A stretch of DNA of 64,000 nucleotides from Escherichia coli (GTDB taxonomy: Bacteria > Pseudomonadota > Gammaproteobacteria > Enterobacterales > Enterobacteriaceae). The position numbers are program-made. Positions 6,001-8,192 of this stretch are shown one piece after another (positions within the stretch are counted from its first letter, which is position 1; each line of letters starts with the position of its first letter). The stretch lies in NCBI RefSeq assembly GCF_048403405.1, contig NZ_CP183129.1. One strand, given 5' to 3'.

Positions 6001-8192
6001 ATTTGCCGATAAGCAGGAGTGCGAATCCCCGGTGCGTATTCGGCAAGGGGTTCTTCGGCTTCCAGAAGCATCGGCGTGTTATGGAAGGCTGGCGTGTTCT
6101 GAATAAACTCGCAAACTTGCGTATCGACCAGAATAAGTCTGGCACGACCGCCTTTCACGCCAGGAAATTTAATGAGATGGTCACTCCCTCCTTCCCGGTA
6201 CTATGCTGAGGACAGGCTTTCATTCGGAGAACTATCATGGAAAACATTGCGCTCATTGGTATCGATCTGGGTAAAAACTCTTTCCATATTCATTGCCAGG
6301 ATCGTCGCGGGAAGGCTGTTTACCGTAAAAAATTTACCCGGCCAAAGTTGATCGAATTTTTGGCGACATGCCCCGCTACAACCATCGCAATGGAAGCCTG
6401 TGGCGGTTCTCACTTTATGGCACGCAAGTTGGAAGAGTTGGGGCATTCCCCAAAGCTGATATCACCACAATTTGTCCGCCCGTTCGTTAAAAGCAATAAA
6501 AACGACTTTGTCGACGCCGAAGCTATTTGTGAAGCTGCATCGCGTCCGTCTATGCGTTTTGTGCAGCCCAGAACGGAATCTCAGCAGGCAATGCGGGCTC
6601 TGCATCGTGTCCGTGAATCCCTGGTTCAGGATAAGGTAAAAACAACCAATCAAATGCATGCTTTTCTGCTGGAATTTGGCATTAGCGTTCCCCGAGGAGC
6701 TGCCGTTATTAGCCGACTGAGTACCATTCTTGAGGATAATAGTTTGCCTCTTTACCTCAGCCAGTTATTGCTGAAATTACAACAGCATTATCACTATCTT
6801 GTTGAGCAGATTAAAGATTTGGAATCCCAGTTGAAACGAAAGTTGGACGAAGATGAGGTTGGACAGCGCTTGCTGAGCATTCCCTGCGTCGGAACACTGA
6901 CAGCGAGTACTATTTCAACTGAGATTGGCGACGGGAAGCAGTACGCCAGCAGCCGTGACTTTGCGGCGGCAACAGGGCTTGTACCTCGGCAGTACAGCAC
7001 GGGAGGTAGGACGACATTGCTGGGAATTAGTAAGCGAGGTAATAAAAAGATCCGAACTTTGTTGGTTCAATGTGCCAGGGTATTCATACAAAAACTGGAA
7101 CACCAGTCTGGCAAATTGGCCGATTGGGTCAGGGATTTACTGTGCCGGAAAAGCAACTTTGTCGTCACTTGTGCTCTGGCAAACAAGCTGGCCAGAATAG
7201 CCTGGGCCCTAACGGCACGACAGCAAACTTATGTAGCATAACGGCAGAAATACACCGGTTTAAAGAATTACTGATCTGGTTTTGCGAATACTGATATTGA
7301 TGATACTAACGGCCCACCGGCCTGTTGAGGAACCTGTAAAACGGAAAGGCTCATTGAAGCCGTATATTTTCTGGAGGTTCATCAGGCGCGGAACTCATCA
7401 AGGCGCGGGAATAAAATCCCATTCAGACGCCGGATAGATTCAAGCAAGCCAACTTGTCGTCAAAATCGGTGTTGCAAAAACGGGAGTGACCATAGATTCC
7501 GTTTTCCAGCCTTTTTCTCTGATCCAACGGTTAACAGTTTGTTTAGCCACACCGAGGCATTCAGCCAGTTCTTCGGTGGTCATTTTATTGCGTAATCTTT
7601 TCATATTATTTGCTATCGCGAATCCCTAAGCGTTGTAATAATCCGATAATCCCTTCCCGCAGAAGCAAGGATGTAAACTGTTTTTGTTCAACTGGCGTCA
7701 TCTCTTTCGCCAGTGTCACCAGCAACACTTCAAGCGGCGCATCACCAGAAAGGGCAGGCGCTTCTCCCTGACCTTCTGGACGTTCAGCATTGCGAATATA
7801 TTCACGAACCTGTTCATTGACGTGAACCAGTCGGGCTTTGCCACCCTGGACGCCAGGTTTTGGTGACGTTGTCCAGCCTTCCTTGCGTACCCATTTATTA
7901 ATGGTCTGGCGGCTATAGCCGGTCAGTCTGGCAAGTTCATCTGGCGTCATCCTCTCCTTGAACATAACAATTCCCTGAATGTATGTGGGTCTATTAGTAG
8001 TTCATTTTATAACACCACTTTACAGGAAACCGTGACATGAATAACTACTGAATGCGAGCGGTTTTCCAAAATTGTTCATTTGCCTGATTTTTCAGCGATT
8101 GAAACTACACGTTGCAATTTGCCGTTGACACATTCGGGCGGAATTCATATGATGCCGCCCGTCAACTCGACAAGCTTTACGTGACGGGGCTA

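Follow-up and report, generated by a model that had tools for sequence, protein, structure and literature searches.

A copy of IS4321 splits yfeD of Escherichia coli at a stretch matching its predicted guide RNA

The closest described relatives of the system considered here are IS110-family insertion sequences (IS) of the IS1111 group, for four of which (ISEc11, ISPa11, ISKpn4 and ISPst6) guide RNAs, termed seekRNAs, have been shown experimentally (Siddiquee et al. 2024, PMC11187229). In IS1111-type seekRNAs the match to the target top strand lies 5' of the match to the bottom strand and the two matches overlap in the target, and for ISEc11 a short RNA without the second-arm part suffices (PMC11187229). 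IS4321 and IS5075 belong to the same group (Partridge & Hall 2003, as cited in PMC8269217 and PMC11187229); for IS4321 the seekRNA study only derived a target logo (PMC11187229), and a supplementary table of Durrant et al. (2024, PMC11208160) lists IS4321, IS4321L/R and IS5075 with a predicted right-end bridge RNA. The present analysis concerns a copy of IS4321 that interrupts the chromosomal gene yfeD in a 64,000-nucleotide stretch of Escherichia coli DNA (RefSeq assembly GCF_048403405.1, contig NZ_CP183129.1), here called the window and numbered from its first base. Our reading, which we consider highly probable, is that an intact IS4321, an IS110 element of the IS1111 group guided by RNA, was inserted at a stretch of yfeD matched by its guide RNA. 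The guide-RNA reading of IS4321 is already known in outline, and the finding is an ordinary one: a known element, the guide RNA of which had already been predicted.

As in the four sister elements, the predicted IS4321 RNA lies downstream of the transposase gene and forms a stem around two target-matching strands, strand order and target overlap are the same, and relatives are retargeted by changes in the loop. The sister RNAs were shown experimentally, whereas that of IS4321 is predicted from sequence. The bridge-RNA element IS621 (Durrant et al. 2024, PMC11208160; Hiraizumi et al. 2024, PMC11208158) encodes a recombinase of the same Pfam families (DEDD plus serine recombinase) that is detectably homologous to the IS4321 transposase (E about 4e-12), and its RNA also has an internal-loop target-binding module. 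In contrast to IS621, where the RNA is at the 5' end, that of IS4321 is at the 3' end with the strand order in the loop reversed; IS4321 has long subterminal repeats and can share a core of no more than 1 nt (T), where IS621 has CT. The IS4321 RNA shows no clear internal loop for donor binding, its candidate nucleotides being in a multiloop, a location noted for many IS1111 elements (Durrant et al., PMC11208160). Compared with IS4321/IS5075 as described, the window copy has the same sequence (that of IS4321), ends, 12-bp subterminal repeats, target motif and orientation to the motif, but it lies in a chromosomal gene and not at a transposon end, and adds 1326 instead of 1327 bp.

The yfeD gene is interrupted between codons 36 and 37 by exactly 1326 bp. 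Its two parts, on the minus strand, sum to the length of K-12 yfeD (285 + 108 = 393 nt) and their ends align to it, and a 219-nt join of 6060–6170 to 7497–7604 gave full-length, 100% matches to intact yfeD in many E. coli genomes. Since the joined flanks are identical to the intact gene, the inserted DNA is exactly 6171–7496, with no target-site duplication. The first-pass annotation had placed an IS110-family element at these positions, without an obvious duplication, and had proposed alignment to an uninterrupted yfeD as a check; that alignment confirms the junctions, the insert length and both claims. The features of the interrupted gene and of the element are as follows:

5886–6170, minus strand: 3' part of yfeD, codons 37–130 plus stop (alignment to K-12 yfeD, joined-flank query)
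7497–7604, minus strand: 5' part of yfeD, codons 1–36, helix-turn-helix region (alignment to K-12 yfeD)
7497–7506: right half-target TTCCGTTTTC, the plus-strand start of the yfeD 5' part
6171–7496, plus strand: IS4321 insert, 1326 bp; with the T at 6170 counted, as in the canonical element, 1327 bp
6170–6176, plus strand: left terminal extension TAATGAG, 7 bp, its TAAT being most of the predicted junction-promoter -10 box in the circle
6177–6188, plus strand: left subterminal inverted repeat ATGGTCACTCCC, 12 bp
6237–7241, plus strand: transposase/recombinase gene, 334 aa, with DEDD RuvC-like and Transposase_20 domains; the sole long open reading frame (ORF)
7242–7496, plus strand: 3' non-coding right end, 255 nt, without a conserved ORF in relatives
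7482–7493, plus strand: right subterminal inverted repeat GGGAGTGACCAT, 12 bp, reverse complement of the left repeat
7494–7496, plus strand: right terminal extension AGA, 3 bp, kept in 34 of 36 relatives

Many copies annotated as 'IS110-like element IS4321 family transposase' match the insert at 100% over its 1326 bp, and the element is therefore not new. Matches to it are carried by 1481 of the 5426 complete E. coli genomes that underlie all E. coli counts given here, mostly on plasmids; IS5075 copies differ from IS4321 at 86 nucleotides. One E. coli protein of 381 aa (P0053), named 'IS110 family transposase', has N-terminal Pfam domains of the MerR type; the gene call probably runs from merR across an interrupted Tn21 repeat into the IS.

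Residues 7–146 of the transposase match Pfam PF01548 (DEDD_Tnp_IS110, E = 1.8e-19) and residues 210–286 match PF02371 (Transposase_20), and the NCBIfam model NF033542, 'IS110 family RNA-guided transposase', scores 341 bits against a cutoff of 140. Its relatives in the PDB are the transposases of IS621 and ISCro4 (E about 1e-12). Nineteen homologues, with identities down to 70%, all keep residues D10, E53, D90 and D93 and the S254-T-G-G motif, and S254-T-G-G aligns inside the C-terminal domain of the ISCro4 transposase, with IS621 matching the same residues. The gene is flanked by 66 nt of non-coding DNA upstream and 255 nt downstream. Its subterminal repeats, the absence of a duplication and the long 3' non-coding end place the element in the IS1111 group of the IS110 family, in which such repeats measure 11–13 bp and have outer extensions of 7 bp (left) and 3 bp (right). 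The earlier annotation had named this subgroup, the 12-bp subterminal repeats, a single DEDD-type IS110 transposase ORF and a 255-bp non-coding 3' end, all of which agree with the repeats, domains, sequence and ORF list given here.

For comparison, 80 loci encoding transposase relatives (60–100% identical) were drawn from a genome collection, from Enterobacterales, Photorhabdus/Xenorhabdus, Pseudomonas and Burkholderiales; a plasmid protein search returned at least 5000 records, all of them IS4321/IS5075 and at least 95% identical. Element ends were defined in 37 of the 80 loci, all with a left end of TAATG(A/G/T)(G/C)-ATGGTC, nearly all with a right end of GACCAT-AGA, and every one with a right flank starting with TT. 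Of the 38 elements listed, 29 have TAATGAG as the left extension and the others TAATGGG, TAATGTG or TAATGAC, which differ at positions 6–7; TAATG is invariant.

The 3' non-coding region can be aligned with those of 35 relatives (transposases 60–98% identical), barring two short hypervariable segments. On this 36-sequence alignment RNAalifold gives a structure of 42 pairs, 14 of which show compensatory double changes. On that structure 97.3% of alignment cells are paired, compared with 33–46% when the partners are slid by 1–3 columns, and the observed covariation was reached by none of 500 shuffles. A covariance model built from 33 relatives, leaving out IS4321, IS5075 and a 90%-identical Serratia element, found a single match in the window, at 7296–7446 on the plus strand (132 bits, E = 5e-32). 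The presence of a candidate guide-RNA gene in the right end (7242–7496) is thus supported by conservation of structure with covariation. The features of the RNA are as follows:

7280–7479, plus strand: conserved RNA core, equivalent to the 'long seekRNA / bridge RNA' (36-element alignment, RNAalifold)
7280–7287 and 7472–7479, plus strand: closing helix of the core, UUUUGCGA with UUGCAAAA
7320–7387, plus strand: target-binding arm, equivalent to the 'short seekRNA', with an internal loop (7336–7374) and an apical hairpin
7320–7328/7379–7387 and 7333–7335/7375–7377, plus strand: stems of the target-binding arm
7336–7347, plus strand: 5' guide strand GUAAAACGGAAA, the complement of the right half-target on its top strand (TTTCCGTTTT)
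7348–7361, plus strand: apical hairpin GGC-UCAUUGAA-GCC, with GC to AU compensation at one pair
7362–7374, plus strand: 3' guide strand GUAUAUUUUCUGG, identical on the top strand to the left half-target and the first bases of the right one
7388–7444, plus strand: second arm, a hairpin (7402–7431) between invariant CUCAUC (7394–7399) and AUAGAUU (7434–7440)
7472–7477, plus strand: TTGCAA, predicted -35 box of the junction promoter, invariant in 36 relatives

In the outer stem of the target-binding arm (7320–7328/7379–7387) six of the nine pairs show compensatory changes, and at two of them 12–13 sequences have changed on both sides; the hairpin of the second arm has four compensatory pairs. The closing helix of the core is unproven because it never varies. 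In the second arm, CUCAU is the complement of the left-end ATGAG, and AUAGAU repeats the right-end ATAGA with the T that comes next in the circle, so that CUCAUC and AUAGAUU are tentative candidates for nucleotides that bind the donor ends, within the multiloop. This donor module is tentative because the element ends hardly vary, because RNAalifold offers another pairing (UCAUC with GAUGA, 7299–7303), and because the short RNA suffices in ISEc11. A comparison of the variant ends (TAATGGG, TAATGTG, TAATGAC, AGC and GGA) with these nucleotides showed no covariation, on variants too few for a decision.

The link between the RNA and the insertion site lies in the two strands of the internal loop. 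The 5' guide strand is the reverse complement of TTTCCGTTTT, a 10-nt match (6170 plus 7497–7505) that yfeD shares with the Tn21 inverted repeat; its segment AAAACGGAAA would pair with this sequence on the top strand, right of the insertion point. The 3' guide strand would pair with the bottom strand left of the insertion point through the segment UAUAUUUUC; this strand matches TATTTTC in the Tn21 inverted repeat and, in yfeD, ATTTT(C). For the window copy the matches are thus 10 nt for the 5' strand and 5–6 nt for the 3' strand; in the loop the match to the top strand comes first, on the 5' side of that to the bottom strand, and both overlap in the target. In the 24 relatives for which both flanks could be used, the 5' strand had a longest exact match that averaged 8.2 nt with the element's own right flank and 4.15 nt with the flanks of other elements, and the 3' strand one that averaged 7.6 nt with its own left flank and 4.0 nt with those of others; for neither strand was the observed mean reached in 5000 permutations of the element-target assignment. 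The first-pass annotation had proposed that the guide RNA is encoded in 7242–7496 and that folding of this region should be examined, and the conserved fold with its 14 compensatory pairs, the covariance-model match and the loop-flank matching all speak for it.

Several relatives show how guides and flanks vary. An element on a Serratia marcescens chromosome (L015, 1135–2455) has a 90%-identical transposase and identical ends but a differing 5' guide, GUAUAUCGGAAU, and adjoins ttcgataacc, not ttccgtttt; its guide-flank match contains a one-base bulge, and the pair is a case of natural retargeting between close relatives. Two Paraburkholderia elements (L067 and L073) share the same 5' guide (...GUGCCAAAGA) and have right flanks of tttggcac and ttggcac, a difference of one T. 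Five copies in other Enterobacterales that are 98–100% identical to IS4321 (L006, L009, L010, L011 and L012) have left flanks ending in (A/T)ATATT+T, which fit the 3' guide UAUAUUUU better than does the Tn21 repeat (TTTATT). Their right flanks are TTCCGTTT(T), TACCGTTTT or TTCTGTTTA, and because these vary, one mismatch to the 5' guide appears to be tolerated.

IS4321 is usually found on resistance plasmids, in the 38-bp inverted repeat that ends Tn21-type transposons; there the IS lies between ...CTTAGCGTGCTTTATTT (also given as ...GCTTTATTT) on the left and TTCCGTTTTCTGAGACGACCCC on the right. In yfeD it lies in the same orientation between ...GCCAGGAAATTT and TTCCGTTTTCCAGCC. The gene carries the motif GAAAACGGAAAA(A)T, and in its GGAAAACGGAAAAAT the right half of the Tn21 repeat (GAAAACGGAAAAT) recurs together with a T run; it is this short mimic of the inverted repeat that explains why yfeD was hit. 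A similar case is ureC::IS5075 in Klebsiella pneumoniae, where 14.1% of K. pneumoniae carry the IS at a short stretch of ureC mimicking the Tn21 inverted repeat (PMC8269217). As in yfeD, a plasmid-borne IS enters a chromosomal Tn21-repeat mimic recurrently (14.1% compared with 3.2%), but gene and species are different and loss of yfeD has no reported phenotype. No report linking yfeD with IS4321 or IS5075 was found in the literature searched.

Interruption of yfeD was found in 171 of the 5426 genomes (3.2%). The site is filled by IS4321 in some genomes and by IS5075 in others, and the 3' alleles of the occupied genes differ at 40 of 280 nt, from which it follows that yfeD has been hit repeatedly. 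One could instead suppose a single ancestral accident, spread by descent or homologous recombination, and many of the 171 genomes do come from a few clinical lineages and are near-identical (99.8% over 2 kb), so that 171 overstates the number of events. A single origin is nevertheless improbable, given two elements with 86 differences between them, the divergence of the carriers' yfeD alleles and the existence of three junction types (described below); moreover, recurrence is what a 10-nt match to the guide would lead one to expect, and it is documented for ureC in Klebsiella (PMC8269217).

A second alternative is that the protein chooses the target by reading Tn21-repeat-like DNA, the 3' region holding only a -35 box, protein sites and the repeat. 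The closing helix and several other conserved blocks never vary and overlap the -35 box, and constraint on the DNA itself could therefore account for part of the conservation. Protein sites on DNA, however, need no pairing, whereas 14 stem pairs are kept paired by two-sided changes; the region's only hypervariable segments change in step with each element's own flanks; and in the sister elements the RNA is needed for transposition and co-purifies with the transposases (PMC11187229). We regard readout by the protein as very improbable. That the 255-nt region encodes a small protein and not an RNA can practically be discounted: ORFs of 40–51 aa are present in the window copy (7282–7437 on the plus strand or 7260–7382 on the minus strand), but only 13 of 33 relatives keep any stop-free frame across the core, which argues that the region is not protein-coding, gap lengths are not multiples of three, and the variation tracks base-pairing and not codons.

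Against a guide-matched insertion of an RNA-guided IS4321 stand several further points. The left half of the yfeD target fits the 3' guide poorly, over only 5 nt, so that the match is largely to a half-site. The insertion added 1326 and not 1327 bp, which is not what a strictly conservative single crossover into T5 predicts. The part of the RNA that would bind the donor is without a covariation signal, the element ends being nearly invariant in the family. A scan of 5500–8600 with Rfam 15 (E ≤ 1) returned only two tRNA-Ala genes and weak chance matches, with none to 7242–7496, and Rfam 15 appears to lack a family for this RNA. No convincing promoter was seen inside the integrated element, which has two promoter-like sites compared with 2.5 expected by chance. 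Lastly, both the guide RNA and the window copy have been studied here as sequence, a circumstance that, as regards RNA expression, also favours readout by the protein. With these points weighed, the reading of the insert as an RNA-guided IS4321 at a guide-matched site stays the one we hold; the RNA is presumably expressed and processed, and the window copy presumably active.

A promoter may instead arise in the circular form. Circles of IS4321 have been observed, and the published junction, AGA-T-AATGAG, equals AGATAATGAG and has promoter boxes (PMC5001619). Joining 7496 to 6170 of the window copy reads TTGCAA-17 nt-GATAAT, a predicted promoter of which TTGCAA (right end) and TAAT (6170–6173) are invariant across transposases down to 60% identity. 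Because these two motifs do not vary and the right flank always begins with TT, the predicted junction promoter seems to be conserved across the whole clade. The element would accordingly circularise, the joined ends would create the promoter, and this could drive the transposase gene and, by co-transcription, the RNA. The DEDD/serine recombinase with its bound RNA would then integrate the circle at a matching site, in yfeD in the single orientation that the guides allow, and the gene would be split without duplication. We infer these mobility steps from the published IS4321 circles and from the sister elements.

The junctions themselves deserve comment. Canonical IS4321 is 1327 bp long and its first base is a T (TAATGAG...), which is present in all 36 family members examined. 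In the window, the T at 6170 doubles as this first base and as part of the T5 run of intact yfeD, and because it is needed for T5 the window copy adds one base fewer than IS4321 does in the Tn21 repeat or in fliK. The latter, a flagellar hook-length gene, holds IS4321 in E. coli G4/9 (L004, 1500–2826) at GGCACTTT/TTCCGTTTTACG; this version of fliK is present in about 1304 of the 5426 genomes, of which only about 2 appear to have it interrupted. A shared core of two bases, such as IS621 has, was considered and rejected: the base before TAATGAG varies among elements, so that at most one T is shared. The junction types, given as the number of T left and right of the IS, are as follows; the variants lie at window positions 6168–6170 and 7497–7498 and are exemplified by loci L086, L087, L004 and L007:

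Tn21-type repeat: empty site T4, 3 T left and 2 right, 1327 bp added
Tn1721-like repeat: empty site T6 (inferred), 5 T left and 2 right, 1327 bp added
fliK: empty site T5, 4 T left and 2 right, 1327 bp added
yfeD, the window and about 161 of 171 carriers: empty site T5, 3 T left and 2 right, 1326 bp added
yfeD, 8 of 171 carriers: empty site T5, 3 T left and 3 right, 1327 bp added
yfeD, 2 of 171 carriers: empty site T5, 4 T left and 2 right, 1327 bp added

Intact yfeD has T5 in the great majority of cases (a match of at least 99% in 1730 genomes, with T5 confirmed at 100% in those listed), and no intact T4 allele was found among the 5426 genomes: a T4 query was matched at 99.5% at best, with one gap. 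The 3/2 junction is seen with IS4321 and with IS5075, and on both divergent yfeD alleles. The two genomes with a 4/2 junction may hold homopolymer sequencing errors, because the IS there has another 1-bp deletion.

Three explanations for the missing T can be offered. It is possible that the guides set the two junctions independently, the 3' guide being placed on the A left of the T run, the 5' guide on CCGTTTT, and the surplus T being lost. It is also possible that insertion occurred into rare T4 slippage variants, which would fit both guides in register. Finally, the donor could be a minority circle lacking the T, since indels at the IS4321 circle junction occur at 1.7e-2 (PMC5001619). The first of these gains from fliK, which has the same right half and T5 without an A before the run, and which is occupied about twenty-fold less often (roughly 2/1304 compared with 171/5426); against it, the Tn1721-like T6 repeat is used in a right-anchored register. 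Among the 171 carriers, the left junction is at the best 3'-guide alignment (immediately after A-T-T) in 169, the right junction is at the best 5'-guide alignment (immediately before TTCCG) in 163, and the surplus T is absent in about 161. That yfeD is an off-register target, at which the two guide strands position the junctions independently and not by a single conservative crossover, is a conjecture we think unlikely on balance, though less so than a single origin of the yfeD insertions. Two sequential strand transfers have reportedly been proposed for an IS110 element in a 2025 preprint.

In the window the gene order on the E. coli chromosome is gltX, a TnpB element, yfeD::IS4321, yfeC, two tRNA-Ala genes and pdeA. 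The split coding sequence would abolish yfeD function. A 54-aa ORF on the minus strand (7440–7604) joins YfeD residues 1–36, the helix-turn-helix part, to 18 residues from the IS right end, and a truncated DNA-binding fragment of YfeD could still be made from it. Between gltX and the 3' end of yfeD lies a gene for a 402-aa TnpB RNA-guided nuclease (4638–5846, plus strand; NCBIfam guided_TnpB, 381 bits), part of an IS200/IS605-type element with flanks at about 4200–5890, which ends some 2–4 bp past the yfeD stop codon. The 3' end of tnpB, the expected position of its guide RNA, has a weak match to RAGATH-18 (5773–5816, 25 bits, E = 0.1). This element is shared by only one of the 171 yfeD::IS4321 genomes, that of strain 23CRST011 (L002), with a partial tnpA annotated just upstream.

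The window copy mostly confirms recent knowledge, the yfeD hot spot and the junction variants being small additions to it. For E. coli, yfeD is a chromosomal trap for IS4321 and IS5075, parallel to ureC in Klebsiella, and an occupied yfeD could mark past exposure to Tn21-type resistance plasmids. It is also an instance of natural off-targeting, in which a T run and 10 nt matched to one guide strand sufficed for insertion. The junction variants in the T5 run offer natural data, at no cost, on junction positioning in IS1111-type elements; if the two guide strands do act independently there, the reaction could consist of two sequential strand transfers, and one-base indels would be predicted at imperfect targets in genome engineering.

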